A stretch of DNA of 64,000 bases from an uncultured virus (IMG/VR IMGVR_UViG_3300037067_023910) (Duplodnaviria > Heunggongvirae > Uroviricota > Caudoviricetes): IMG/VR virus record IMGVR_UViG_3300037067_023910. One strand, written 5' to 3'. The position numbers were made by a program, and so were the translations under genes. Under the pieces are notes generated by a model, which did no database searches, was not told where the DNA came from, and was given only the letters and a program-made list of their open reading frames with translations. This document shows, in pieces, positions 5,785-62,709 of the stretch (positions are counted from its first letter, which is position 1; each line of letters begins with the position of its first letter).

Positions 5785-5898
5785 TTAAATTCCAGGGGGG
5801 GGATAAAAAAAACTGTGGGATTTGATCGCAAAGTAGCCCAAGACCCCACAGATACCACAGACGACACTTAACCAGAAGAGTTTAAACCAGGTTTTCAT
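5785..5898 (-). CDS. 37-aa single-TM microprotein (below ORF-track cutoff)
   Basis: MKTWFKLFWLSVVCGICGVLGYFAIKSHSFFYPPPGI*, preceded by AAGGAG RBS, fills a gap in the operon. Confidence 0.6.
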   Translation of the reverse strand: MKTWFKLFWLSVVCGICGVLGYFAIKSHSFFYPPPGI

Positions 5899-15766: not shown

Positions 15767-15854
15767 AAAAATCCCTGGAATTAATGGATGGAAAAATTAT
15801 ATATGAGAAGATGGAAAAATTGAAAAAAGGATGATCTTGTCAAGTCTACAATGC

Positions 15855-16200
15855 GTGAACAAGTGAACAACCAGTGAACAAACATTGATCATCGTTTTTC
15901 TTCAATCTGGTGGCAAAAACTTGTCCAGAATGGAGAAAAAGGGTGAAGTGAACAAGTGAACAAAATTTGGGGATCTACGCCTATATATCACATGTGACAT
16001 GTGATGTATTATATGTATTACTACATATGTGTCATTCTATGTTTTCCGTTACACGTGTAACCATATATATCCTAGAACTTGTTCACTTGTTCACTTGTAA
16101 AATATATTTATATATATATATGATCTAGAGGGAAAAAAGGCCATTTAATCGGTGAACGGAAGTTGTTCACTTGGCGTTCACTTGCCCAACTTTTGTTCAC
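15855..16200. repeat. Putative replication origin: converging GTGAACAA repeats around an AT-rich palindromic core
   Basis: GTGAACAA at 15855, 15863, 15874, 15948, 15956; TTGTTCAC at 16079, 16087, 16163, 16193; palindromes TCACATGTGA (15988) and GTTACACGTGTAAC (16048); AT run 16099-16121; directly downstream of the helicase gene. Confidence 0.75.
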
Positions 16201-16304
16201 CAATCTTGTTAGATCTACTTTCTCTGACCAAATGACTAATTGATGAAAAAATCTTAAATCTTGTTTTTTCTCTTCTGGTGATGAAATTGTGTTTAGATTG
16301 GAGT

Positions 16305-19300
16305 TTATTGCTTTCTCGGGGGGTGGGCCAGTTTATATTCGCCGGGGTTGGGGGTAAATAATGTCCCGTCCTTGACCCATTCACCCAAAGCATTTTTAAT
16401 AAAATCGGGTGTCACCCCTTCGGTCGCAGAAAGTGTCTCCCAGAGGTCTTCAAATGTAATCCCTTCTTTGGGAGCCGCAAGCTGCAAATCCCCGATCTTT
16501 CTTTGGACGACATTTAATAAATTCCGCTTTTTCGTCGCCACATTCATAATATCTATTTCGTCAATTTTTTGATTCGACACCCCAGAGGGGGCCTGGCAAT
16601 TAATCACGTCCACGATAATATTATTTTCGCCCTTGGAAGAATTGGAAGATTGAGGTGTTGACACTTTATTTTCGGTTTCCTTAGTCACATAAAGCCCGAC
16701 TTCACCTTGGGAAAAATACAAATTATTATCCGCATCATCAAAAGATTTCCAATCTTCAAAAGGCACCACGACGACCCGCATTCGTTTGAATCGTTTGACC
16801 CCATTCAAAACATAAGCCGTGTTAAAGGAGCCTTCTAAAGTATGGGGAAACGTGGCGATCAGGCGAGATTGAAACATTTTTGAGGTCCATTTAATTTTGC
16901 CATAGCCTTCATATTGAAATTGAATTTCCCGGATATTATTGATATTCCAAGCCCACCCGCGTTTCAAAAGGTCATTATCAGCCTTATCTTTATAGGTTGC
17001 AGTGCCCAATGGTGTTTTGATCCAAGTCGTTTCATCTTGGCGGATCGCTTCAAGCCCATTTAAGGTTAAAACCCCCTCCTTTAGGTAGGAACTTTCCCGG
17101 ATCCGGCCCCGTAAGATTTGGTCTTGCATTAAGGAAAATAAGTCATCGGAAATATAGGACGCGGATTGGTCTAAAATCGGGAGTAAGGGTGCTAAGTCTA
17201 CAGTGATATTGAAGATTTCTTTCATCAACAAAGCCCCAAACCCAAAGATTTGATAGGTCTTATATTTCCGGTTTTTCCGGAGTTTACATAACACAGGAGG
17301 CATGACAATGGACTTTATTTTTGCCCGAATTGTTTCCATGGTCCAATCTTTGGTATGTTCATATAAGAGCCACATTAACCCTCCGACTGGGAATGAATCG
17401 ACGGCATCGCCCCATTCTGGGCGTTCAATCAATTCATCAATAAAGAAAATAATGGTCCGGGTCACAAAATTTGGGTCACAAAACCAGTCAGGGAGGTCAT
17501 TACACGTCAAAGCCAGGGCGGCTAAATAGGCTTTTTGGACAGAAGCGAATTGTTTATTCTCTCCCGCCCCTTTTTTGAACATATATTGGTCTAACGTCAA
17601 ATAAGACTTCAAGACGTCCAAGAATTTGGCGTCAGTATGGGTGATGTCATCTAACCCAACGGGAAAGGTGCTGGAAGCAATATAGGACTCAAATTGGGAC
17701 AAATGTTCCACCGTGCTGGAATTAATAAAAGAAGACCCTTTTTCATGCTTGAGTCCAAACATGACACATAGGATCATTTCAATGAAGGGTGACTTGCCAA
17801 ATTCTCCGGGCCCCTGTAATACCAACAAAGACATCAGCTTAGTGATATTACGGATGACATACGCAAAAGGTGCCTGGATGCCCCAACAAAATAACAATTC
17901 TTTATATTTAATCCCCGTCAAATCATAAATTTTGCGGAATTTTTCAATGACTACGGCTTTATCAAAAGTCTTTTTCATGATCTTATCGACCAGGAAAAAT
18001 AAATCACAGCCCGTTTGTTCTTGGAGCAAGATAATGGCATTGGAAGGTAAACTCCACCCTGACTCAATAAACCCTAACCGGGTTTCAACTAACCCCGTCT
18101 CGTCGGGAAATTGTTCAAAATATTGTTGGAGGGGGTGATTTGCAACGTTAATTGACCGGGACGCCACGGCACATTCCGAATGGATTTTGGCCTTTAAACT
18201 ATCAAACGTCACATCATAAAAGGAATTCACCGTTGTATTTATCCGAATATACCCAATATATCGCCATTGAGAATTTGGGCCTTGCTTGACTTGATACCGG
18301 TGTTCAATTTTCAGTTCAGTCCACCCATACAGTTTTTGGGTGACAGGGTGTTCTTGGACCAGTTTGTCCACAAAAATACCCTTTTCGGGGATTAAATACA
18401 CCCGGGAATCATGTTCCGAAGTAATTTGGTAAGGATAGGTCCCGATGACCGCGATAGAATTAGCTTCAAGGCAATAATCACAAAAACAAGATTCGGCCTT
18501 TTTTCGATTTAATGCTTGGCGGGGCCGGAGGGTAATTATCCCAATAATCGCGACGATGTCCCCGGGTTTCGTGTAGTTGATCAAATAGTCTTGCACTTCG
18601 ACCAACATAATTTCCGGAAAGCCATTTTCGGTCGGATTGACATTTAAACAACTATCATGGACATAGAGTTTTTGAGAAGGGACCTGGACTAAATCTTTTT
18701 GAGTTAATTTCCAATCCCGCGTATTTCGACACGAGCTGTTGGAACATTCCCGAGGGACCACTAAATCTTCTTCATCGGTCTGCAACTCTTTCATAATATT
18801 TCCACAGACCGGGCATTCAAAAGACGCTTCTGTGAGGCGGGGCCGGGCTTTTCCTTGTAAGGTCACAATTCCATTGATTTGGATTAATGTGCCATTTTTG
18901 GACGTCGACTGGAGGTCTTTAATGTGTTTGGCCAATGTGAGGTCATTTTTGGGGGCCGAAAAGACAGGTCGAATTTTTTCCGGGCCATCCTTTTGGCCCC
19001 CGGCGGAAGCCATCATGAGATCAGTAATGACCACTTCGAATTCATGAAAGGCCATTTTGGGGTCTTCGAGGAGATAGGCATAAAGGACCGGATCATATTG
19101 GAGTATATCTTCCAAATCAATCGGAATAAGGGGGTCGGTTTGAGAATAGGCTAAGGCGATCCTTTGTTGATATTTAAAAATGACCTTTTTTTCAATGGTC
19201 GGGGGGTCTGTCGAATTATCGCCCGCTGGTTTGGCGACCTCGACTGTCTCTTCATAATTTTTCAGAAATTCTTCAATAATAGTATAGGGATTATTAGGGG

Positions 19301-19343
19301 TCGTATATGGGGTTTCGACGTCATGAGGTTTTTCACTGGTCAT
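16305..19343 (-). CDS. Chimeric replicative helicase: MCM N-terminal/OB/Zn domain, SF3/DUF927-like ATPase, MCM-type C-terminal winged helix
   Basis: IDLEDILQYDPVL, FECPVCGN..CSNSSC, KPGDIVAIIGI, LEANSI (MCM N-terminus); GPGEFGKS, VGLDD, LTCN, FVTR (ATPase); GTLFTPNPGEYKL (MCM wH). Confidence 0.8.
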   Translation of the reverse strand: MTSEKPHDVETPYTTPNNPYTIIEEFLKNYEETVEVAKPAGDNSTDPPTIEKKVIFKYQQRIALAYSQTDPLIPIDLEDILQYDPVLYAYLLEDPKMAFHEFEVVITDLMMASAGGQKDGPEKIRPVFSAPKNDLTLAKHIKDLQSTSKNGTLIQINGIVTLQGKARPRLTEASFECPVCGNIMKELQTDEEDLVVPRECSNSSCRNTRDWKLTQKDLVQVPSQKLYVHDSCLNVNPTENGFPEIMLVEVQDYLINYTKPGDIVAIIGIITLRPRQALNRKKAESCFCDYCLEANSIAVIGTYPYQITSEHDSRVYLIPEKGIFVDKLVQEHPVTQKLYGWTELKIEHRYQVKQGPNSQWRYIGYIRINTTVNSFYDVTFDSLKAKIHSECAVASRSINVANHPLQQYFEQFPDETGLVETRLGFIESGWSLPSNAIILLQEQTGCDLFFLVDKIMKKTFDKAVVIEKFRKIYDLTGIKYKELLFCWGIQAPFAYVIRNITKLMSLLVLQGPGEFGKSPFIEMILCVMFGLKHEKGSSFINSSTVEHLSQFESYIASSTFPVGLDDITHTDAKFLDVLKSYLTLDQYMFKKGAGENKQFASVQKAYLAALALTCNDLPDWFCDPNFVTRTIIFFIDELIERPEWGDAVDSFPVGGLMWLLYEHTKDWTMETIRAKIKSIVMPPVLCKLRKNRKYKTYQIFGFGALLMKEIFNITVDLAPLLPILDQSASYISDDLFSLMQDQILRGRIRESSYLKEGVLTLNGLEAIRQDETTWIKTPLGTATYKDKADNDLLKRGWAWNINNIREIQFQYEGYGKIKWTSKMFQSRLIATFPHTLEGSFNTAYVLNGVKRFKRMRVVVVPFEDWKSFDDADNNLYFSQGEVGLYVTKETENKVSTPQSSNSSKGENNIIVDVINCQAPSGVSNQKIDEIDIMNVATKKRNLLNVVQRKIGDLQLAAPKEGITFEDLWETLSATEGVTPDFIKNALGEWVKDGTLFTPNPGEYKLAHPPRKQ

Positions 19344-21266: not shown

Positions 21267-21734
21267 CTAAGCCACTGGAGTAGGTAACTCAGGGGGCATC
21301 ACCCGGACATTAGGGTCTGCAATTGCAAATTGAGCATAGCAGTCATCGAAAAAATCGACCTCAAGGGCTAAGGCAGCAAATTTGGCTAAGACTTGCGTCT
21401 TATAAGTGACCATTTGGGCCAGAAATTCCGCCGTTTTGGCTTTACTGTTCACAATGTCTAACATTTCTTTGGTCGACAAGGCAAAGTCCCGGCAGATAAT
21501 ATGGTCGCGGGGGATCGCAAAATAACTGCCAATCTGGGCCTTTACGTCAGGGTGGCGGGTCGTGCAAATATAGACCAATTCCCCCGCGTTGCGGAGTTCC
21601 TTAAAATAACTCAATAAAGGCAATTCATGTTCAACATCTAAGATAAGGTATAAATTGGCCTTATCCGTTTCGGGGTTACAATGGACGAGGGTGTCGTCCA
21701 TATCAAAGACATATACTTTTTTTGAAGGCTTCAT
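21267..21734 (-). CDS. HAD-superfamily phosphatase
   Basis: YVFDMDDTL (motif I), CTTR (II), K, FFDD (IV); likely start MKPSKK at 21734. Confidence 0.8.
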   Translation of the reverse strand: MKPSKKVYVFDMDDTLVHCNPETDKANLYLILDVEHELPLLSYFKELRNAGELVYICTTRHPDVKAQIGSYFAIPRDHIICRDFALSTKEMLDIVNSKAKTAEFLAQMVTYKTQVLAKFAALALEVDFFDDCYAQFAIADPNVRVMPPELPTPVA

Positions 21735-21797
21735 AGGTAATCCATTCCAGAAATGTGAAAAGAAACGAAAAAAACGACAAATTCTAAGCGTCACAGC

Positions 21798-23569: not shown

Positions 23570-24241
23570 TTATTTGTTCTCCTTGCTGGGGATTAAAAAA
23601 GTAGTTAAAGCTTTGAATTTCTTCCATTTTTGGGCTTCTCGCTGCCGTTTATTTTCCGCAGCTTGTTTCGACCATTGTTGAAAGATCTCTTGGTGAGATT
23701 CCGCGTGGTGGTGGCATGGTTTGCAGAGAATTTGTAAATAGTTTAAATCCCAACAGAGATCATAATTTTCGATTGAAAGTAGCGAGACTGGTTTGATATG
23801 GTGAATTTGCACATCTTTATAATACAGAAATTGCCCACACCCTTCACACTGCACAAAATATGAATCGAATGGCCATTCGGGGGATGAATTGATTTTTTCT
23901 GAGACGGTTTCTCTCCAATTGGTTTTTCTCCATTTATCCACAATCACCATTCGACAACTTGGAGAACAAGTCCACATTCCGGATGATCGCTTGCCGTCTT
24001 TTCTTAACATTATTTTTCCACAATTTCGACATACTCGCCGTTTATCGCTCCCATATAAATTATAGACATCAATTGGAATACTCCGCGTCGATAGCCAATC
24101 GTTAATGATCCATTTGTGATAATATTCGGTGTTGTGTTCGTCACATAATAACCGCATTGTTTTCAAATCGGAATTGACCTCCGATGGAAAGAAACTTCGG
24201 CAGATTAGACAATGCTTAAAATACTGGTCCCCTTCGGTCAT
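23570..24241 (-). CDS. HNH endonuclease with N-terminal Zn fingers
   Basis: CEGCG...IHHIKPV...NYLQILCKPCHH. Confidence 0.85.
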   Translation of the reverse strand: MTEGDQYFKHCLICRSFFPSEVNSDLKTMRLLCDEHNTEYYHKWIINDWLSTRSIPIDVYNLYGSDKRRVCRNCGKIMLRKDGKRSSGMWTCSPSCRMVIVDKWRKTNWRETVSEKINSSPEWPFDSYFVQCEGCGQFLYYKDVQIHHIKPVSLLSIENYDLCWDLNYLQILCKPCHHHAESHQEIFQQWSKQAAENKRQREAQKWKKFKALTTFLIPSKENK

Positions 24242-25739: not shown

Positions 25740-26144
25740 TCATTTATTGTTTGTTTCTTCTTTGATTTGTCCTTCCTTCTTGACTAATTCTTTTAAATGA
25801 TTAAAGGCCCTCAAAGGATCGGCTTTGATATGTTTCAAAAATTTATAATGACGTTTACTTGCTGCGATTAAGGGGTAATCTATAGTGGTAATTGGCCTTC
25901 GCTCCATTTGAGTCAATGACCAATAAGACCGCCCGAGGTTCCTTTCATATCGCTGGACACAAGGGCCACAGACATAATCTTCAAATGGTGTCGCTACATC
26001 ATGATCATAATCATATTCAGAGAGATATGCGACAAAAGTATAGGCCCAATAGGCTTCATTCTTTTTACAGAAAGGACATTTCATTTTTTCGAGCCCCCTA
26101 TAACCCCGTGACCTTCCAACCGAAAGCTTGACAAATGCCTTCAA
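25740..26144 (-). CDS. Zn-finger protein
   Basis: CPFC...CGPC; true start probably MKCPF. Confidence 0.6.
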   Translation of the reverse strand: MKAFVKLSVGRSRGYRGLEKMKCPFCKKNEAYWAYTFVAYLSEYDYDHDVATPFEDYVCGPCVQRYERNLGRSYWSLTQMERRPITTIDYPLIAASKRHYKFLKHIKADPLRAFNHLKELVKKEGQIKEETNNK

Positions 26145-26305
26145 TAATAGTTTTTGCTTGTTCCGATTCTAATAAAACATAATAATCTTTAAAGGCCGTA
26201 CTCATGACCACGGGCAACTTGCCGTCGACTAAGCTGCGGACGTCCAACATTAACGCGGGTTCTATATCGTCGCCGTCTTCGTTTTCTTCAGATATGATCT
26301 TTTTT

Positions 26306-27331
26306 TTAGCCATTTTGTGATCTCTCTTGCTTTTTTTGTGGTGAGACAAATAAATCTAACCGGCATTGTTTTCTGGAAGGGGCAGACTCCTGATTTTTCT
26401 TCACGGGATTCCATGGGGGGGTAATGAGGTATTCTTCGACCTTTTTATTTTGCCCCGTCCCCCCGGTCGTATAGTGGGTGGACACCGTTTCGATATGGCA
26501 CCATTGAAATAACGCTTCAAATTCCGGTTTGATATTCAATGTCAATAAAAAATAATCCGTCCGGGGCAAAGACATCAAGAGGGTATTTAATTCTTCATAC
26601 CGTTCCCAGGGAAAATCTTTGACTTCGTCTTCATACCCTTCTACCCCTAAATAGGGCGGGTCAATAAACCAGACCCGGGTATGGTTTTGGTATTTCAAGG
26701 CAATCTTGAACACCCGGGTAAAATCTTGGCCTAAGACCTCGGTCCGCCGCATGCGTTCCCCGACCCACGTCAAGGGCCGAAAAATGCGGTAGCGAAGGCG
26801 GTTTTTCTCTGTCCGGGGGTCATTTTCAAAATAGGTCATGGTCCGGGCTGTGAGTGACCCCCGGTAGGCCATATTACTATAAAAGAAAAATTGAATGGCG
26901 TGTTGCACCATGAACGCTTTGGAGCCTTCGTCGGCAGTTTGGTCATATAACTCCTGGGCCGCCAAGAGTTTTTGGCGGATTTGAGCGTTTTTTTCCTCAT
27001 TATGGTAGAGGTCGTAGAGACGAAAAAACTCATTTTCATCTTTACATAGGACATTTTGCTGCTCTTCTAATTCGGGAGCGAAACGTTTCCCACAATAATA
27101 AAAATTCGCTAAAAGTGACGCTTTATCATTGATAATCTCTTCAAAGTGGGGTTGTTTTTCAAAATACACCCGGCCCCCCCCAAAAAACGGTTCGACATAC
27201 ATCGAATAGTCTAAGCTGTCGATAATCCCGACCAGTTTTTCAGCCAAATACCGTTTTCCCCCCATACGGACTAAAGGGGGGTGGTTTGGAAACGGCTCAA
27301 TGGGCACATTGCGGTAGGGGTCAATTATCAT
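26306..27331 (-). CDS. Dam-like (D12 class) N6-adenine DNA methyltransferase
   Basis: MGGKRYLA, YVEPFFGGG, IIND, FIDPPY. Confidence 0.92.
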   Translation of the reverse strand: MIIDPYRNVPIEPFPNHPPLVRMGGKRYLAEKLVGIIDSLDYSMYVEPFFGGGRVYFEKQPHFEEIINDKASLLANFYYCGKRFAPELEEQQNVLCKDENEFFRLYDLYHNEEKNAQIRQKLLAAQELYDQTADEGSKAFMVQHAIQFFFYSNMAYRGSLTARTMTYFENDPRTEKNRLRYRIFRPLTWVGERMRRTEVLGQDFTRVFKIALKYQNHTRVWFIDPPYLGVEGYEDEVKDFPWERYEELNTLLMSLPRTDYFLLTLNIKPEFEALFQWCHIETVSTHYTTGGTGQNKKVEEYLITPPWNPVKKNQESAPSRKQCRLDLFVSPQKKQERSQNG

Positions 27332-27339
27332 ATTCTAAT

Positions 27340-27657
27340 TCACGACGTTTGGGGGTAAGAAATTGTAGGGCGGGTTTTATATTCCTTAAATGTTCCGTCC
27401 TCGTTGGGGACGCGGACATAGGTCTCATCGCTGGGCGTATGAACAATTTTAGCTTTTGTATAGTCTATTCTTACACTCGCGGGTTTTTCTTGTACCCCTT
27501 TTTCAGCATCTTGGGCCGCTTGGAGTTCTCGGATTAAAAAATCTCGGATAGCGACCCGGATGAGTTCAGACCGGCTGGGGTAGAGACCCCCTTCACCAGT
27601 CAAGGAGTCGATCTTTTCTAAAAATGGGACAGGTAAATTGACCGTTATAATCTTCAT
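27340..27657 (-). CDS. Ribbon-helix-helix (CopG-like) regulator
   Basis: MKIITVNLP...[17 protein letters not shown]; start 27657 by ATGA overlap. Confidence 0.9.
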
Positions 27658-27869
27658 TGGTGGGTCAAGACCTCCCATTCACGGCTTTTAAGGGCAGAAA
27701 ACTCACTTGGGTCCAGTGATTTGTTCATATCATCTTCTCGATCGAGGAATTGTTTCACCGCGACCCGGGTTGCTTCTGACCGACTGGGGTAATACCCCAT
27801 GTTGACCAATACTTCGATACACGCGAGATATTGGTCTGGAATGTTGAGAGTGACGATTTTTAATCCCAT
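27654..27869 (-). CDS. Ribbon-helix-helix (CopG-like) regulator
   Basis: [11 protein letters not shown]...[17 protein letters not shown]. Confidence 0.9.
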
Positions 27870-27904
27870 AGCTTAACACCTGGTAAAAATGGATAAAAAA
27901 ATAT

Positions 27905-27944
27905 TGCGAGGCCGGGGCGGACTTGCACCACCCTTATCCAGCCT
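27905..27944 (-). ncRNA. tRNA-like minihelix (acceptor stem plus T-arm), element 1
   Basis: AGGCTGG-ATAAG-GGTGG-TGCAAGT-CCGCC-CCGGCCT-CGCA: 7-bp stem, 5-bp stem, 7-nt T-like loop. Confidence 0.55.
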
Positions 27945-27965
27945 TTAAGATATATGAAAAAAGGA

Positions 27966-29093
27966 TTAGAGTTGAATATTTAAATTAGACTCGATGAGTG
28001 GAATTTGTTTGATAGGAAGGTCGGGATAGAGTAATTCCCACTTGATAGTTGGGTTATTAATCGGGCACCATTTACAGCCTTGGTGGTGGTATTCATCGAG
28101 GACAAACAAAATCGTGTAAGCCGTGAGATAGTCGAAAAAGGCACATGTCCATTTAGCATCAAAAAGATGCCCAAACTGACAGTGGGCACAAGGGTAGAGT
28201 TTTAAATGTGGGTATTGATTTAAATCATCTTCGATTTCATCTGAGGGGTCTGAGGGGTCGGATTGTTCTGAGGGAATTAAGGGGGCCCAGTCCTGAGCCG
28301 AAACATTATGGGAATTCAAGGTTTCAATCTGGGCCAGGACATCATGTTCTTTCCGTTGAAGTTTTTCGTGATATTTTCTTGCGGTCCAATATATCCCTAC
28401 AATTACAAGATAAATTATGCCAAGCAATGTACTTGTATCACTGGAAATTACATCGCTAAATTCTCTTCCAGCCATATTAAAATGTGCAATGTTAACTATA
28501 TAAGAAAGGAATTCCATCGCAATGATAAGAGGTATCCCCATTATCAATGCTGCGGCTGCCGCTTCAACAATATTTACATTTGTAATTCGTTTTTTGATTT
28601 TCGCGAATTTGTTTTCATAAAATTCTTCAATGCCGACCCGCATTCTATTCCGTTCATCAGATGGGGTCGCTGGGCCTTGCCCATCAATCATAAGTTCGCG
28701 ATAATACCGGAGGTCGGTCATCATCCGCATATTCGTCATGGGGTCTTGCCCCGATGACAATCGCACCATATAGGCCCCTTGCATCATTCGCAGAGCTTCT
28801 TCATCATTTTCAAGTCGGCTTTTATATTTTTCAATGGCCCAATATGAAACAAGACCCCCAGCCTCGAGAAAACAAAAAACAGCGATTATTCCATCATTCA
28901 TACCCATCACAATACTTACGATAAAAGGAATAAGAATCCCCCAAAAAGATCCACCAATGAGTGGTTCTACATTATCATTGATCTTTTCAAGACGATTATT
29001 TATTTGGGCTAATTTATTATTTATCTCGCCCAATTTATTTACGGTCTCTTCACGGTCACGTTCAATTTCGTTTGTCATGGTCATGGTCATCAC
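27966..29093 (-). CDS. Membrane protein with duplicated coiled-coil/TM-hairpin unit and C-terminal Cys cluster
   Basis: VSYWAIEKYKSRLEND versus GIYWTARKYHEKLQRK; CAHC..C..CKWC. Confidence 0.7.
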   Translation of the reverse strand: MMTMTMTNEIERDREETVNKLGEINNKLAQINNRLEKINDNVEPLIGGSFWGILIPFIVSIVMGMNDGIIAVFCFLEAGGLVSYWAIEKYKSRLENDEEALRMMQGAYMVRLSSGQDPMTNMRMMTDLRYYRELMIDGQGPATPSDERNRMRVGIEEFYENKFAKIKKRITNVNIVEAAAAALIMGIPLIIAMEFLSYIVNIAHFNMAGREFSDVISSDTSTLLGIIYLVIVGIYWTARKYHEKLQRKEHDVLAQIETLNSHNVSAQDWAPLIPSEQSDPSDPSDEIEDDLNQYPHLKLYPCAHCQFGHLFDAKWTCAFFDYLTAYTILFVLDEYHHQGCKWCPINNPTIKWELLYPDLPIKQIPLIESNLNIQL

Positions 29094-29562
29094 CCCAATG
29101 AAATTCCATCAACTTGATACTTTCGATAGGGAGGCAGTCGTGTTTAATCCCCTCACATATTGTGCGTACAGTCTCCCCTTTACAATTACGAAATGGATAT
29201 ATAATGATTGTTTGTGTATTTTCTCTGTTTTCAATTGAAATTTGGACCTTATTGTGGGTCTGCATGTCAAATAACATAAATGATTCGTCCGAGATTCCAT
29301 AACTAATATAGCGGGGCCTTTTGTCGGTAAAATAAACCCTTAAAATAGAACTTAATTCTTGCTCATTTTTTGGGGGATTTAATGTGTTGCCCTTCAGCTT
29401 CATATAAATCGCACATTCTGACGGGAGGATATATCCTTTTCCTGATTTAAGCAATACCGGGGCATTGATAAAATTCTCCACCCGGTCATACAGGTGAAGG
29501 GTATTTTCATTTATCTCCAACAATTTATTTGTTGGGTCTTCGGGTTCGTTTTCGGGTGTCAT
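29062..29562 (-). CDS. Hypothetical protein
   Basis: 166-aa ORF in operon. Confidence 0.65.
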   Translation of the reverse strand: MTPENEPEDPTNKLLEINENTLHLYDRVENFINAPVLLKSGKGYILPSECAIYMKLKGNTLNPPKNEQELSSILRVYFTDKRPRYISYGISDESFMLFDMQTHNKVQISIENRENTQTIIIYPFRNCKGETVRTICEGIKHDCLPIESIKLMEFHWGDDHDHDKRN

Positions 29563-29665
29563 GGTCTATCACTTTCTGGTCTGCAGTGTTTTTCGGCTTC
29601 AAATAGCCTTCTTTTAGTGCCGCGTCGCGGAACCGTTGGGCGGACGTTTGTTTCTTTTTCATTGT

Positions 29666-29875
29666 TTACCTCATTTCCTTGAAAAACTCTTTCATGAGTA
29701 TATAAAACCAGACTAAAATAAATCCAATTGAAAAATAACCCATTAGTCTTCCCCCTTCTCCAAAAAAGAAGAGTATCATTAGGGTGGCGATTCCAACAAT
29801 TCCGACGATTCCAATCATTTTAAATTTATTTTCTGCAGCATTCATTTCTTTTTCTATATCATACATTTTTTTCAC
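29666..29875 (-). CDS. Small two-TM protein
   Basis: 69 aa, hydrophobic hairpin, GTG start. Confidence 0.6.
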   Translation of the reverse strand: MKKMYDIEKEMNAAENKFKMIGIVGIVGIATLMILFFFGEGGRLMGYFSIGFILVWFYILMKEFFKEMR

Positions 29876-29893
29876 CTGATATTTTGAAACATA

Positions 29894-30118
29894 TTAATCA
29901 TTTTTAAAGAAATAACAAAGGAAAGAAGACCAGATTATTATCGCTATTAATATATAGAATAATTTTTTAATATTCTTCATAAAATAACTCCAATCTGGTT
30001 TCCAGAATATTCCGACAAAGAAGATTACGAGAAGACCTACAACAATTATGGGAATTACGAATCGTATTATTAACATTTCAATAGTTTTACGGTCTTGCCT
30101 TTTTTTCATCAATGACAT
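29894..30118 (-). CDS. Small two-TM protein
   Basis: 74 aa, hydrophobic hairpin. Confidence 0.6.
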   Translation of the reverse strand: MSLMKKRQDRKTIEMLIIRFVIPIIVVGLLVIFFVGIFWKPDWSYFMKNIKKLFYILIAIIIWSSFLCYFFKND

Positions 30119-32148: not shown

Positions 32149-32634
32149 TTAAGGGGTTTTATCGGGGGTTTTTTTCGATCTTTGTGGGTCGCCTTCGTCT
32201 ACGTCTTTTCTTTCGAAGGCGGTTTTAGACACCAATGCGATTATTTCCATTTGAATTCTAATATCTTCCCACGTGAAAGAAAATTCATTTTTCAATGATA
32301 TACATGTCCCACTCATTTTCTCTTTTGGGATTAGTTTCCACCACGATTCCATGCCGAGAATTAAGTCTTTCTTATCTAATAACAATAGACATGGATTTCC
32401 GTTAAATAATGGATTCATGATTCCAAAATCATGGACTAAAACATCACCCAAATAAACAGCTAACCGCGGTTTATCATCATCACCTTCGCGGCATGATTTT
32501 ACAACCGCCAGATGTCCTGATTCTTGAGTTCGAGTTATTTTGCCATATTTGGGGTGTTCGGTATATTTCAGAAGAATTTTCTCAATAACATCGTGCAATT
32601 CTTCTGCCGTATAGACTTTCTGTGTTGTTTCCAT
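32149..32634 (-). CDS. Hypothetical protein, tandem paralog A
   Basis: METTQKVYT...RLAVYLGDV...EFSFTWED shared with 32795..33208. Confidence 0.8.
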   Translation of the reverse strand: METTQKVYTAEELHDVIEKILLKYTEHPKYGKITRTQESGHLAVVKSCREGDDDKPRLAVYLGDVLVHDFGIMNPLFNGNPCLLLLDKKDLILGMESWWKLIPKEKMSGTCISLKNEFSFTWEDIRIQMEIIALVSKTAFERKDVDEGDPQRSKKTPDKTP

Positions 32635-41232: not shown

Positions 41233-41961
41233 TTATTTGGCCGGGATATTATAATACGGTCCAAAGACTCGGAGGGCAAACTGACCCTCGGGGGTCATAC
41301 TAATATTCCCATGGCGGGTCTTTTCCACAGCGACAAAGTGCCACCGTTCTAATGGGGTCAAAAAATGGGAATTTAATTTATTGTATAACGCAGAACTACT
41401 ATCGACTTTCCACCCGGAATAGACATCATCTTGATAAAGGTGGGTCATTAAATCTAATAGGTCTTTCTTCTTCATGGTGGTGGTCTGCTGCGTGTGCATC
41501 CAAGTGTCGATCTCGGACAACATTTTAACCAAAGGCACAGGGGGATTTTCGACTTGGACATGGAGAAAGGAAGGTATTTTTTCCTGGGCATACAACTTGG
41601 TGTGAAAATAAAAGGCCGCCATCGTCCCAATGACCCCCAACATGGGCAGCTTGCCATCGCCGAGGTAAAAAAGGAGATATTGGTCAGCCCCGTGTTCGCG
41701 TTGGTAAATAAGGGCAATACACCGGAGGAACGCTTCACAATCGTGAAAATCGACCACATCTTCAAAGAGGTCTTCCTTAGGGTTTTTTAAGGTGGTCTGA
41801 AAATAATCGTGTAATTGAGAATATGCCCCGGGGTCGGTCTCGCCCCCGGTCGCTTTGAGTAAATAGACCCGGTCGGGTTTCATAGAAGGCATTAATTCAA
41901 TAACATTAACCGCAGTCTCGCCCACGGGGATGATATGAATTCGGAGGCCAGACACATTCAA
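41233..41961 (-). CDS. DUF6293/HFX_2341-like regulator (CARF-like Rossmann domain plus winged helix)
   Basis: RIHIIPVG....MKPDRVYLL N-terminus; C-terminal FLTPLERWHFV...ISMTPEG wHTH. Confidence 0.7.
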   Translation of the reverse strand: MNVSGLRIHIIPVGETAVNVIELMPSMKPDRVYLLKATGGETDPGAYSQLHDYFQTTLKNPKEDLFEDVVDFHDCEAFLRCIALIYQREHGADQYLLFYLGDGKLPMLGVIGTMAAFYFHTKLYAQEKIPSFLHVQVENPPVPLVKMLSEIDTWMHTQQTTTMKKKDLLDLMTHLYQDDVYSGWKVDSSSALYNKLNSHFLTPLERWHFVAVEKTRHGNISMTPEGQFALRVFGPYYNIPAK

Positions 41962-45008: not shown

Positions 45009-45944
45009 TCAATAGGGGAAATATTTATCGTAGAACTCCAACCGGGCCTTCCACGACCGGAGGATCTTCAAGTAATGGTCGGCGTTGACGGACTTGGGTT
45101 TCTGATTTAATAATAATGCCCTGACCCCTTCGTCTAACCCTTGTTCCATCCACCGCGAATTGAGGGCGTCCCGGAACAAATGGGGGTGGGCTTCATTCCG
45201 CCACTTCCGGAGTTGCTTCCGAATGACCCCGGTCGCTAAGGGAAAGAGAAAGTTTTCCTTGGGGCTCAGTTGCTGATATTGCATGACATAGCCTTTCAAG
45301 GTATTTACGAACGACAAGGGGATTGGGTACATATTAGACCCCGTCGTCGCTTTGGTCTGTTTTTCTTGGGTCCAAATAAACCGGTTTTCAAAATCAATCT
45401 TATCAATTTCAATATTGACTACACCCCCGACCCGCATCCCTGTGTAGGCTAAGAGGGCAAAAATGAGGTAATATTGCTCGTTGCGGGTGCGAAAGAAGTT
45501 CAAACAATCGGTGACATCGGCTTTGGAAAAGGGTTCTTCATTCCGCCGGGAACCGGTGTCCCGCATGGGGAGAAAGGCGGGTTCAAACACCACTTCATAA
45601 TTGTATTTGATGGTGTCCCCAACGGCAATGAGGGGCCGGATAATCCAATAAATGAACTGTTTAACGGTGGTGCGGTATTTATTTTTGACCGACAGTTGCC
45701 CTTGGACATGGTCGTTCACATATTGAAAATATTCGCGGAATTGTAACGGGGTCACGTCTAAAATCGAGTGAATGCCTGGGTAATGGGCCACCGACCAGTC
45801 ATAAAAGAACTGGAGTTGAAAGGTCTTCCGGGCCCGGGTGCCGTGATTTTGTTCTGACGAGAGAAAGGTCTTGTAGAGGGCCTGGTCACCGTCAAAAAAG
45901 GGGCGATCATTGGTGTTTCCACCGTCGTTGGTTATTTTGCTCAA
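45009..45944 (-). CDS. int: Tyrosine recombinase/integrase
   Basis: LLAYTGMRVG (R), EK, HPHLFR (HxxR), LLNQ, DHYL (Y). Confidence 0.9.
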   Translation of the reverse strand: MSKITNDGGNTNDRPFFDGDQALYKTFLSSEQNHGTRARKTFQLQFFYDWSVAHYPGIHSILDVTPLQFREYFQYVNDHVQGQLSVKNKYRTTVKQFIYWIIRPLIAVGDTIKYNYEVVFEPAFLPMRDTGSRRNEEPFSKADVTDCLNFFRTRNEQYYLIFALLAYTGMRVGGVVNIEIDKIDFENRFIWTQEKQTKATTGSNMYPIPLSFVNTLKGYVMQYQQLSPKENFLFPLATGVIRKQLRKWRNEAHPHLFRDALNSRWMEQGLDEGVRALLLNQKPKSVNADHYLKILRSWKARLEFYDKYFPY

Positions 45945-47834: not shown

Positions 47835-48625
47835 AAGACCTTTCGGCCTTCGGGGGTCATTTGACCGAATTCCATTAGGTCTGCGACTTTAATTTCTTCC
47901 CAATCGGTCTTGATACTATATATGTTATTTGTACCATATCGGAACGAACACTCGGACTGATGACAAATAAAACTCTTACCTGAACGAAGTTCAAAATAAA
48001 CCGCGCCAGTCACTTTATTAGTTGGCATAAAATTCATCTCATTTTTTCTTCTCTTTTTTCACTTGCACCCACCCGTCTAAAGACGAGGAAGGTTTGGTCG
48101 GGGGTTGAGACAATGTTCGGGTATTCCGACATTTTTGACACGCCTTACAGACCCCTTCGGTGACATTCGCTTTTTTATCCGGGCAATAACAATAAATCTG
48201 ATACGCTTGAATTACTTCAAGAGATTCTTTACTGGGTTGTTGGGTGTCAATGGAAGTCACGGTCAATTTCCGGATTTTCCACTGGGGGCTGAACCCTTCT
48301 TGGTGTTTATCGCCGTAGGGACAGATCGGCGGGGGGGTCACTCCAAATTGGTGTTGGTCAACGAGAGAATAGCAACATTTTTGACCGCAATTCGGGGTGA
48401 GGCAGTCATATTCTTCTTCCCATTTGGGGGTAGTTTGGTCCGCAGCCATAGGTATCAGTCTTCTTCCCATTCTTTCAATTCGACCACCAACGATTCTAAA
48501 AAGGTATTATAATTCTGTTGTTCGTGGGTGACTGGGTCTCGAAAGCGTGAAAGGGCCAACTGGCGAAGGTAAGCCGGGATTTCGTTTAATCTTGGAATAT
48601 TGATGGTAATTTCATAAGAGACCAT

Positions 48626-52183: not shown

Positions 52184-52213
52184 CTGGTCTCAATTCGTTC
52201 TGAGGATAAAAAA

Positions 52214-53935: not shown

Positions 53936-53984
53936 AGGTTTCTATCACCTCTTCCGAAGGTATTGGTTGTGCGTTATAATAACG

Positions 53985-54033
53985 CGAGGCCCTTGCCCGG
54001 ACTCGGACCGGGGGTTCCTCGATCAACAAGGGT
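53985..54033 (-). ncRNA. tRNA-like minihelix (acceptor stem plus T-arm), element 2
   Basis: ACCCTTG-(14 nt)-CCCGG-TCCGAGT-CCGGG-CAAGGGC, directly after a T7 tract. Confidence 0.5.
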
Positions 54034-54045
54034 AAAAAAATGGGA

Positions 54046-55702: not shown

Positions 55703-55873
55703 AAGAGATCACTTTTCATAATAGGTTGGGGTATTGTGTTGAATATTTAAAGGGGCACGGCGGCACGCTGGGCCATGGGCCCAGAAAAAGAAGCAATGCT
55801 AACATAAGGATTGTGAACATAGAGTAAGGAGTTATAAAAATGCCGTCGTTGCCCATAATAAGGGGAAAAAAGG

Positions 55874-57564: not shown

Positions 57565-57967
57565 ATTTGTTCACTTCATATCATACCCATCACACCTGCC
57601 CGCCAAGTCGGACCCAAAGGGTTGTTGCAGGTTTGGGGGTGCATGCCTTGGTCAAAAACAAAAAAAAACATTATAAGGGGTCACAACATCCCTCGTTCAA
57701 TACAAAATGGGGGCACGCCCAACATTGATGGTCGGGGAGGGCCGTAAAGGGGATGACTTGCCCTTCCCGTTCACAATATCTTTGCCCTGTTTGGTTGTTT
57801 TGTAACCCTAATGTATAGAGTTTCTTAAATGCATCTTGTTCCATGGTCAGTCCTCTTTTTCGACCATTTTTTGGACGACGGCTAAAAAAAGGAGCCCTGG
57901 AAGTAAAATTAAACACAAAATAATTACACAGATTGCCGCAAGGGGGTTCATTGGTTGTTCCATAGGA

Positions 57968-61982: not shown

Positions 61983-62264
61983 TTACGTAGTCACCTCGAG
62001 TAATTTAAAAAACACTAAGGGCCGCCCACACGAATTGGTAGGCCGGGAAAATTTCTTGACCATATTGAAATGCGACAACCGCATTAAGTTGTCATAAACA
62101 GTCGACCAAGGGTAATGGACTGCCTGGGCTAAATCGCGGCGGGTCATTGGCCCGTTTTTCTCCAGTAGTTTTATTAATTCGAGTTGGAGGAGGCTGGGCA
62201 TAAACCCGTTGACCTCGATACAGTGGTCAGTGAGGTGTTGGGTGTGTTTGTCAGACAGGATCAT
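61983..62264 (-). CDS. Winged-helix (TrmB/ArsR-like) regulator
   Basis: LEKNGPMTRRDLAQAVHYPWSTVYDNLMRL...GRPLVFF. Confidence 0.85.
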   Translation of the reverse strand: MILSDKHTQHLTDHCIEVNGFMPSLLQLELIKLLEKNGPMTRRDLAQAVHYPWSTVYDNLMRLSHFNMVKKFSRPTNSCGRPLVFFKLLEVTT

Positions 62265-62709
62265 GGGGGATCTCCTCTGAAATGCGAGTGTTAAGGGCCC
62301 GGCGGGCTGCGGCCCATTTGGCCCGGCGAGCTTTATTATGCCGGGAATCCCTAAACGAGACAAAATGCGGCTGAAAGGCCTGGTGGAGTTTTTGGCCTAA
62401 GGCCCAAATCACGGCGTCCCGCATTAAAAGGTGGTCGGTCGCATGTCCCCATTGAGCGTCCGTTAACGAAATAGCAATTGACTGCGTCCCCCCTTCATGG
62501 TATTGGGTCGCTCCAAAGGAGGGGATGGTGGTCGGTTTATCGGCATCAAGCCACCGTTCAAACAATTGCCGGAAAAATTCGGCCAAGCTTTTGGCATATT
62601 TGGGCCAGACTTGACGCATAAGGGTCAGAATGTCAGTGGGCACCGAAAGGGTTAAGATATTCTTGCCCTTTGGGTCCTCGTTCAATATGTTATCAGTTGT
62701 GGCAGTCAT
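62251..62709 (-). CDS. Tandem RHH-like protein
   Basis: ILTLSVP...SLAEFFRQLFERWL and SIAISLT...LMRDAVIWAL. Confidence 0.6.
   Translation of the reverse strand: MTATTDNILNEDPKGKNILTLSVPTDILTLMRQVWPKYAKSLAEFFRQLFERWLDADKPTTIPSFGATQYHEGGTQSIAISLTDAQWGHATDHLLMRDAVIWALGQKLHQAFQPHFVSFRDSRHNKARRAKWAAARRALNTRISEEIPHDPV

Follow-up and report, generated by a model that had tools for sequence, protein, structure and literature searches.

A spacer hairpin with partial likeness to the top half of a tRNA in a probable Asgard archaeal mobile element

The spacer hairpin E1

The 64,000-nucleotide (nt) stretch of DNA analysed here, called the window throughout, comes from an uncultured virus of the Caudoviricetes (IMG/VR record IMGVR_UViG_3300037067_023910) and covers all but 17 kb of an 81-kb contig. 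On its minus strand, at positions 27944-27909, a GC-rich hairpin (E1) forms an island within an AT-rich spacer that separates a gene for a 375-amino-acid (aa) orphan protein from the gene for a small ribbon-helix-helix (RHH) protein, RHH1, which is followed by a second RHH gene (RHH2) and an adenine methyltransferase gene (Table 1). An earlier note on this DNA had described the hairpin as a mimic of the top half of a tRNA, with a 7-base-pair (bp) acceptor-like stem, a 5-bp T-stem, a 7-nt loop and 5 nt in place of the D and anticodon arms; the minus strand has exactly these letters and this geometry. The hairpin itself is thus confirmed, and the interpretation put forward in the note is partly supported. 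Our tentative view, held at less than even confidence, is that E1 may be a genuine RNA hairpin, specific to its lineage, at the boundary between two genes of what is probably an Asgard mobile element.

All 12 of the 12 proposed pairs form, giving a 7-bp outer stem and a 5-bp inner stem with a 5-nt bulge and a 7-nt loop. Two of them are G.U wobbles (T27940.G27913 and T27930.G27918), which were absent from the earlier description. Folded in isolation, the element takes up the proposed structure as its minimum-energy fold at -17.3 kcal/mol, whereas the opposite (plus) strand of the same stretch reaches only -10.6 kcal/mol because of the two G.U pairs, and the structure therefore belongs to the transcribed strand. 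When at least 20 nt of flank are included on each side, the proposed pairs drop to probabilities of 0.00-0.16. With long flanks, CUGGAUAAGGG pairs with a U-rich stretch in a competing fold, and the best fold of the whole 96-nt spacer (z -1.59) excludes the proposed structure. The basis of this long-range competitor is the inverted repeat TGGATAA/TTATCCA around E1, which is also a possible candidate operator for the RHH proteins. The CGCA tail behind the stem is one letter off NCCA, as had been pointed out, but the argument drawn from that closeness loses weight because the host is apparently archaeal. An encoded CCA is mostly missing from archaeal tRNA genes.

The spacer is 96 nt long and non-coding, running from the upstream stop codon TAA (27966-27968) to the RHH1 start codon ATG (27869), and no open reading frame (ORF) extends across it. 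On the coding strand, E1 begins 22 nt past the stop and finishes 39 nt ahead of the start, and the order of features is stop, TCC, U6, hairpin, 7 nt, U7, ATCCA, U5, a Shine-Dalgarno-like AGGTG and RHH1. The A/T-rich block ATATTTTTTTATCCATTTTT of this spacer contains the recurrent motif TTTTTTATCC, of which the window has 5 copies where 1.3 would be expected; none of 100 shuffles has as many. The block is centred about 28 nt before the RHH1 ATG, and about 28 nt is the spacing of an archaeal TATA box from the start site, so that RHH1 may be transcribed from a promoter of its own with hardly any leader.

Runs of at least five T within 30 nt past a stop are present in 12 of the 28 spacers, compared with 8.9% of random 30-nt windows on the same strand, and the T6, T7 and T5 runs around E1 each have at least five T shortly past the stop on the coding strand, the pattern sought for archaeal U-tracts. 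In archaea, terminators are reported to be U-tracts whose strength grades termination (PMC8716108). Taken with this mode of termination, the enrichment of U-tracts past stops suggests that the upstream message probably ends at or around E1 instead of running on. With oligo-T runs flanking it on either side, the hairpin seems to stand between separate transcription units and not within a single long transcript needing to be cut, which speaks against the earlier proposal that E1 cuts a long unidirectional transcript ahead of the RHH pair. In several other spacers of the window (at 57638, 55800 and 46798), too, GC-rich hairpins are placed between a T-run and the next gene.

Comparison of E1 with chance

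In stability alone E1 is ordinary. The z score of its 40-mer is -0.95 and 31 of 200 shuffles fold equally well; the minus strand of the window holds 123 separate 46-nt segments at -15 kcal/mol or better, about 40 of which, by our own count from the listing, match or exceed the -17.9 kcal/mol of the E1 segment. The geometry by itself, taken as stems of 7 and 5 bp with 2-10 nt between them, a loop of 7 nt and a flush 3' side, is present 5 times in the window and 2.7 times per shuffle. We defined T-arm-like hairpins as a 5-bp stem with a G-C closing pair and a loop T-N-C-R-A-N-N, and identified three of them, all on the minus strand, with a flush 7-bp outer stem in E1 only. The geometry combined with the T-loop letters and the G-C closing pair arises in 11 of 1000 shuffles, by T-arm-like criteria that were chosen after E1 had been seen. 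E1 is thus partly beyond chance, by shape plus T-loop letters, and not by energy or by shape alone.

A probable second copy, E2

The scan for T-arm-like hairpins delineated a second element (E2) in the spacer 53936-54045, which is flanked by a gene for a 451-aa protein and by one for a 139-aa protein, the latter placed ahead of a MoxR-VWA pair. Common to E1 and E2 are a TAA-TCC followed by a T-run, a 5-bp G/C stem, a loop of the form T.C.AGT and the 8-mer GGCCTCGC a few letters past the stem. In both, an A/T box follows the inner stem, after 12 nt in E1 (TATTTTTTTA) and 13 nt in E2 (TTATTATAA), whereas the distance from this box to the ATG is about 28 nt in E1 and 43 nt in E2. Behind E2 stands the palindrome GCGTTATTATAACGC. 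Two T-arm-like hairpins on the same strand that share an 8-mer within 25 nt downstream were obtained in 3 of 1500 shuffles. In the T-stems, the two outer pairs are G-C in E1 and C-G in E2, so that both sides differ, and the third pair differs on one side. E2 also has the potential for a flush outer stem of 6 bp (CCCTTG/CAAGGG), to which an A.C pair can be added.

The tRNA-like fold of E2 reaches -15.4 kcal/mol as against -20.1 kcal/mol for its best fold, with pair probabilities of at most 0.17, and GGCCTCGC is 2 nt out of register between the tRNA-like folds of the two elements. A covariance model of E1 alone misses E2 at E<=10, and plain local alignment of the two stays within noise (score 19, reached by 51 of 2000 shuffles). 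Under lenient scoring E2 is the top non-self match for E1, by 1 point only, and a MAFFT alignment of the pair is not in structural register. Only 8- and 6-letter blocks are common to them, and the GC profile has no compositional break at E1 or E2. We regard E2 as a probable relative of E1. Elsewhere in the window, a GC-rich hairpin with the core GGGCCCATGGCCC (55755-55800, minus strand, in a 171-nt spacer) stands between T-runs and a textbook-looking TTTAAATA box before a 111-aa gene; its layout is as at E1 and E2, but its loop is not T-arm-like.

Kinship with tRNAs

ARAGORN called 0 tRNA genes in the window and Rfam gave none at gathering scores, nor was there a match to the tRNA family RF00005 at E<=10 in 27800-28050. 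The T-loop of E1 has five of six features (T54, C56, R57, A58 and the G53-C61 pair), and its position 55 is G, not U. We compared this position with a set of 31 Loki-type tRNAs from two genomes, 26 of which were parsed: it is U in 26/26 of these, G in E1 and C in E2. The best identity of the E1 3' half to the 26 Loki-type 3' halves is 16/24.

Across 2.9 million viral contigs, the 17-mer forming the E1 T-arm turns up in 2 places, each time as the T-arm of an RF00005 tRNA (50.9 and 30.4 bits; gathering score 29). For the E2 17-mer there are 9 matches, comprising 3 RF00005 tRNAs at the T-arm, 1 sub-threshold tRNA-like sequence and the rest unscored, and a control 17-mer from the third T-arm-like hairpin, in a coding region, has 8 viral matches with 0 in an Rfam match. 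E1 and E2 thus use T-arm sequences of real phage tRNAs, which lends weak support to tRNA kinship because there was one control only and GC-rich T-arms are perhaps densely sampled by phage tRNAs. The acceptor strands of the matching phage tRNAs are unrelated to those of E1 and E2. A degenerate pattern covering both elements has 10 matches in the viral contigs, about the estimated chance number, and 2 of them are 3' ends of tRNA-Asp.

Phage tRNAs scored by Rfam can themselves have the non-canonical T-loops UGCAAGU or UCCGAGU, with G or C at position 55 (L001:1493-1562, L002:1493-1565, L085:103-175, L086:143-217 and L089:103-175). The anticodon loop of the L001 tRNA is shortened, and L083 has a sub-threshold match resembling Y RNA (YrlA).

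As identity to the 3' end of a host tRNA would have made E1 an attachment (att) site, such identity was sought. The 24-nt 3' half of E1 has 0 exact matches in the genomes of 185,579 species, and a search of five Asgard genomes that allowed up to 3 mismatches found neither its 3' half nor that of E2. At up to 1 mismatch in 400 Asgard genomes, the E1 and E2 17-mers are each found in 4 genomes, against 3 and 5 for reversed controls; the E1 matches are in coding-like DNA, none in a tRNA, and one E2 match (L105) is a tRNA-Pro with the canonical U55 loop TTCGAGT. The att-site reading is therefore not supported in the species and Asgard collections searched. K-turn, H/ACA, C/D-box and CRISPR-repeat readings were dropped by eye, as their motifs are lacking.

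Search for homologues

The covariance search in related genomes that the earlier note had suggested came out empty, as the E1 model has 0 matches in 151 Asgard genomes. Among nine metagenome loci of RHH1 relatives (one an identical fragment and one with only 5 nt upstream), the seven informative ones with at least 100 nt upstream have no such hairpin, and at one locus (L014) the RHH pair abuts the preceding gene. No T-arm-like hairpin is present at 12 genome loci of RHH1 homologues or at 10 loci of ATPase relatives (36.6 kb). The archaeal genome loci carry CGACAAAA instead, about 100-130 nt upstream of the RHH1 homologue.

The conserved (T)TCCGACAAAA/CGACAAAA upstream of RHH1 homologues (L013, L016, L019 and L031-L037, from Asgard genomes and metagenome contigs) may represent an operator or promoter element. 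The window has only a partial match to it, TCCCGAC at 28026-28020, and TYCCGAC was discarded as a window-wide promoter motif (19 occurrences against 17.2 expected).

Comparison of 26000-30000 with phages and plasmids by blastn gave no match, and the 61-nt E1 element gave chance-level matches only against phages, in coding DNA and at E>=2. A 15.7-kb contig encodes a 64% relative of RHH1 (P0003). RHH1 and the MoxR-like ATPase have no relatives in the viral contigs, and the relatives of the methyltransferase, at 25-46% identity, are without synteny.

Neighbouring genes and the archaeal setting

All long ORFs of the window are on the minus strand. The orphan protein encoded upstream of E1 finds only itself among 5.8 billion clustered proteins and has no relative in the viral contigs, and tblastn against phages was empty. 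Family scans of the window proteins detected no capsid, portal or terminase family. We scanned an alignment of RHH1 homologues over one genome per species (185,579 species), and the best relatives, at 40-60% identity, were encoded by Candidatus Lokiarchaeum ossiferum (60%), Ca. Harpocratesius repetitus, three metagenome-assembled genomes (MAGs) of Promethearchaeia/-ota and two MAGs labelled 'uncultured archaeon', with weaker matches in three Thermoproteota and two bacteria. Relatives of the MoxR-like ATPase are present in 17 of 400 genomes of the Asgard phylum (best identity 41%). An Atlas look-up with the MCM-like protein yielded only scores under 0.9, which we set aside. From the MCM-like helicase, the archaeal-type integrase and the TrmB and DUF6293 domains (Table 1), together with the RHH1 relatives in Asgard archaea, we read the window as probably an Asgard (Loki-type) archaeal mobile element or virus.

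Table 1. Positions of E1, E2, the surrounding signals and selected genes in the window.
Feature	Positions	Strand	Basis or remark
E1 outer stem, 5' strand AGGCTGG	27944-27938	minus	sequence reading
E1 bulge ATAAG	27937-27933	minus	sequence reading
E1 inner stem, 5' strand GGTGG	27932-27928	minus	sequence reading
E1 loop TGCAAGT, 7 nt	27927-27921	minus	sequence reading
E1 inner stem, 3' strand CCGCC	27920-27916	minus	sequence reading
E1 outer stem, 3' strand CCGGCCT	27915-27909	minus	sequence reading
E1 tail CGCA, within the 8-mer GGCCTCGC (27913-27906) also present at E2	27908-27905	minus	
Inverted repeat TGGATAA/TTATCCA around E1, 7 bp	27890-27940	unstranded	1 match; 2/100 shuffles have one
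T6 run, 3 nt past the stop of the 375-aa orphan gene; candidate archaeal U-tract terminator	27957-27962	minus	
A/T-rich block ATATTTTTTTATCCATTTTT with recurrent motif TTTTTTATCC; second candidate terminator and TATA-like box	27885-27904	minus	
T7 run, beginning 7 nt past the E1 stem	27901-27895	minus	
T5 run	27889-27885	minus	
Shine-Dalgarno-like AGGTG, 7 nt ahead of the RHH1 start codon	27877-27881	minus	sequence reading
TTTTTTATCC sites, mostly at gene boundaries on the coding strand	2902-2911, 5801-5810, 27891-27900, 52204-52213	minus	
TTTTTTATCC site	48171-48180	plus	
E2, probable second copy	53985-54033	minus	T-arm-like hairpin scan of the window
E2 5' outer strand ACCCTTG, followed by a 14-nt connector	54033-54027	minus	
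E2 T-arm-like CCCGG TCCGAGT CCGGG	54012-53996	minus	
E2 3' outer strand CAAGGGC	53995-53989	minus	
E2 GGCCTCGC, common to E1	53991-53984	minus	
TAA-TCCCA-T7 ahead of E2	54040-54034 (T7)	minus	
RHH1, 71-aa ribbon-helix-helix protein	27654-27869	minus	Pfam RHH_8, RHH_1
RHH2, after RHH1	27340-27678	minus	Pfam
D12-class adenine methyltransferase, after RHH2	26306-27331		Pfam MethyltransfD12
375-aa orphan gene upstream, its stop preceding the spacer	27966-29093	minus	no family
1012-aa MCM-like helicase with MCM_N and MCM_OB	16305-19343		Pfam
Tyrosine integrase, also matching an archaeal-phage integrase model	45009-45944		27.4 bits, cut-off 27
TrmB-type winged helix and DUF6293_C domains	41233-41961, 61983-62363		Pfam
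HFX_2341_N			Pfam, below cut-off

Near-identical DNA of 26000-30000 is present in groundwater and landfill metagenome runs (X1 and X2) from two studies, and a third metagenome contig (L012) begins within the E1 hairpin and is identical from there onward. One letter differs between the listed metagenome pieces and the window, and none of the listed landfill pieces spans E1. Both runs listed for 26000-30000 are of DNA; an RNA run was sought there and none is listed.

Further observations concern other parts of the window. The 538-nt spacer 15767-16304, just downstream of the MCM-like gene, carries GTGAACAAGTGAAC-type repeats in both orientations along with AT-rich stretches and is likely a replication origin. 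Two genes, at 21267-21794 and 23570-24241, encode a protein resembling polynucleotide kinase (phrog_415, E 5e-6), which hints at RNA or DNA end repair, and a zinc-ribbon HNH endonuclease. A direct repeat of 215 nt with 85% identity (32438-32652/33012-33226) covers the starts of two small genes that lie side by side and encode 161 and 137 aa. Another repeat, of 86 nt, is found at 32240/32805, and the arrangement looks like a tandem gene duplication.

Interpretation of E1

On our tentative reading of E1 as a gene-boundary hairpin, most transcripts of the upstream orphan gene would end at the U6 tract, while those reading through would form the hairpin and end at the U7 tract. The hairpin would cap and stabilise that 3' end and insulate the RHH-RHH-methyltransferase unit, which would restart from the TATA-like A/T block downstream, overlapping the U7 tract. 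We infer the transcript ends, the promoter and the stabilising role alike. The likeness to a tRNA top half would then be partial and no tRNA enzyme would be needed, a view that we favour but hold to be short of probable. Ordinary stability and no conservation beyond the element are as expected for a lineage-specific boundary hairpin.

Several observations weigh against this reading. The U7 tract begins 7 nt past the stem and not within the 0-2 nt looked for in bacterial intrinsic terminators, so E1 is not a canonical hairpin-plus-U terminator, and it is missing from the 28 terminator-like sites called by a consensus terminator scan. The E2 hairpin is without a T-run after it, and a hairpin followed by a U-tract is therefore not common to both copies. 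If termination at U6 were efficient, the hairpin would rarely be transcribed. A generic hairpin, moreover, leaves unexplained the 5-bp stem with a G-C-closed 7-nt T-N-C-R-A loop in both copies, their flush outer stems of 6-7 bp, and the identity of the 17-mers to phage tRNA T-arms with a negative control.

The main rival, a true tRNA top-half mimic acting in an archaeal host, we consider possible though doubtful. RNase P would cut before A27944 and tRNase Z after the discriminator-like C27908, perhaps with the CCA-adding enzyme acting too. As at plant mitochondrial t-elements, such cuts would part the RHH message from the one upstream or generate an mRNA 3' end. In favour of this are the precise 7/5/7 dimensions and the flush 3' strand, as well as the T54, C56, R57, A58 and G53-C61 letters at a frequency of 11 in 1000 shuffles, the 17-mers of both elements coinciding with phage tRNA T-arms when the control does not, the position on the transcribed strand in one of few spacers, and a second T-arm element with a flush 6-bp outer stem and two T-stem pairs changed on both sides. 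The interpretation of the earlier note stands to this extent; G55 (C55 in E2), against U in all 26 Loki-type tRNAs, and a fold disfavoured by its flanks count against it, with the tRNA-like fold of E2 lying 4.7 kcal/mol above its best. Neither ARAGORN nor Rfam makes a tRNA call, the E1 covariance model does not find E2 and has no match in the 151 Asgard genomes, the shared 8-mer is 2 nt out of register, and GC-rich T-arm-like 17-mers may match phage tRNAs by chance, there being one control. U-tracts on both sides also make a cutting signal less needed. The suggestion that E1 is a decoy for anticodon nucleases is hard to credit, as an RNA without an anticodon arm would seem a poor one.

A DNA-level regulatory site appears unlikely. 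Here the palindrome plus GGCCTCGC before the TATA-like box would be bound by the RHH pair or by a winged-helix protein, and GGCCTCGC would fill the position of the B recognition element (BRE) in the archaeal promoter layout. RHH repressors usually bind their own promoters, the inner stem precedes the A/T box by nearly the same distance in E1 (12 nt) and E2 (13 nt), the TGGATAA/TTATCCA repeat brackets E1 and overlaps the box, and E2 is followed by the palindrome GCGTTATTATAACGC. The stems, however, differ between E1 and E2 while the loop is kept, which fits an RNA or single-strand hairpin better than a protein site on duplex DNA. As DNA, the two G.U pairs make an imperfect palindrome, the distance from A/T box to ATG is unequal, and the RHH1 homologues at 14 related loci are without such a hairpin upstream, most of them sharing CGACAAAA there.

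That E1 is an unselected GC-rich hairpin with tRNA-like dimensions by chance seems to us rather improbable. Its stability is at shuffle level, the bare geometry is found 5 times against 2.7, no conservation is seen outside the element, and, at 11 per 1000 windows, such hairpins would number in the thousands in a scan that covers windows by the hundred thousand. Chance fits less well with a second T-arm-like hairpin in a spacer of the same strand that shares the 8-mer (3 of 1500 shuffles), with the strand asymmetry of E1 and with a GC-rich island standing in an AT-rich spacer.

Hardly credible is a relic of a tRNA gene, as an att copy from integration or a decayed tRNA borne by the element. In its favour, a 3' fragment of a tRNA gene is common in integrative elements of archaea, a tyrosine integrase is encoded, the E1 T-arm equals real tRNA T-arms, and E1 and E2 resemble direct repeats that flank the integrase at a distance of 26 kb from each other. 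Against it, the integrase is 17 kb away from E1, a 5' acceptor strand 5 nt from the T-arm is not expected in an att copy, the two elements share short blocks only without a compositional break, the E1 3' half lacks a tRNA match in the species and Asgard genomes searched, the 17-mer matches in Asgard genomes are at reversed-control level and the best Loki-type 3'-half identity is 16/24.

Comparison with known systems and meaning

Plant mitochondrial t-elements are tRNA-like structures, not tRNAs, by the 5' or 3' ends of mRNAs, and have been proposed as cis-signals for RNase P and/or RNase Z (PMC1920247). E1 resembles them in lying between coding regions on the transcribed strand. The transcript ends of t-elements have been mapped (PMC1920247). 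E1 departs from t-elements in being carried by what is probably an archaeal mobile element, in keeping only acceptor-like and T-arm parts and in having G at 55.

The T6, T7 and T5 runs past the stop and the hairpin are like the archaeal terminators at which aCPSF1 acts with a U-tract (PMC8716108). Terminators of this kind need no hairpin, and the E1 spacer has one. E1 shares with bacterial intrinsic terminators a GC-rich hairpin upstream of a U-tract, but differs from them in the 7-nt gap before the U-run. The 17-nt T-arms of E1 and E2 are identical to those of the tRNA genes L001, L002, L085, L086 and L089, whereas the elements lack the D arm, the anticodon arm and the variable region, and their acceptor strands are unrelated. 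The best Rfam match to the spacer, the AdoCbl riboswitch RF01482, was rejected, as it scores 16.8 bits (E 0.76) where the family's gathering score is 50. This sub-threshold match arises because of the T-loop-type hairpin, the riboswitch having a hairpin GGUGCAAGUCC with a loop of that type; 28 core positions are missing from the spacer match, and E1 is no member of the family.

The Asgard paper examined for such elements makes no mention of them, which is no proof that none is in print. It is possible, though in our judgement unlikely, that an Asgard-archaeal mobile element here provides the first tRNA top-half mimics seen in such an element, with E1 and E2 as minimal acceptor-plus-T-arm RNAs that have non-canonical G55/C55 T-loops and are cut by the host RNase P and tRNase Z. 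If E1 is only a boundary structure, it would be routine and would add to the very thin knowledge of how genes end and start in Asgard mobile elements. If it is a true mimic, the cuts would punctuate the single-strand gene array or form the 3' ends of mRNAs, and archaea would join organelles among the places where such a device is known. MALAT1-mascRNA is another known case of such a tRNA-like device. A true mimic could also serve as a compact substrate in work on archaeal RNase P and tRNase Z. [quoted passage not shown]

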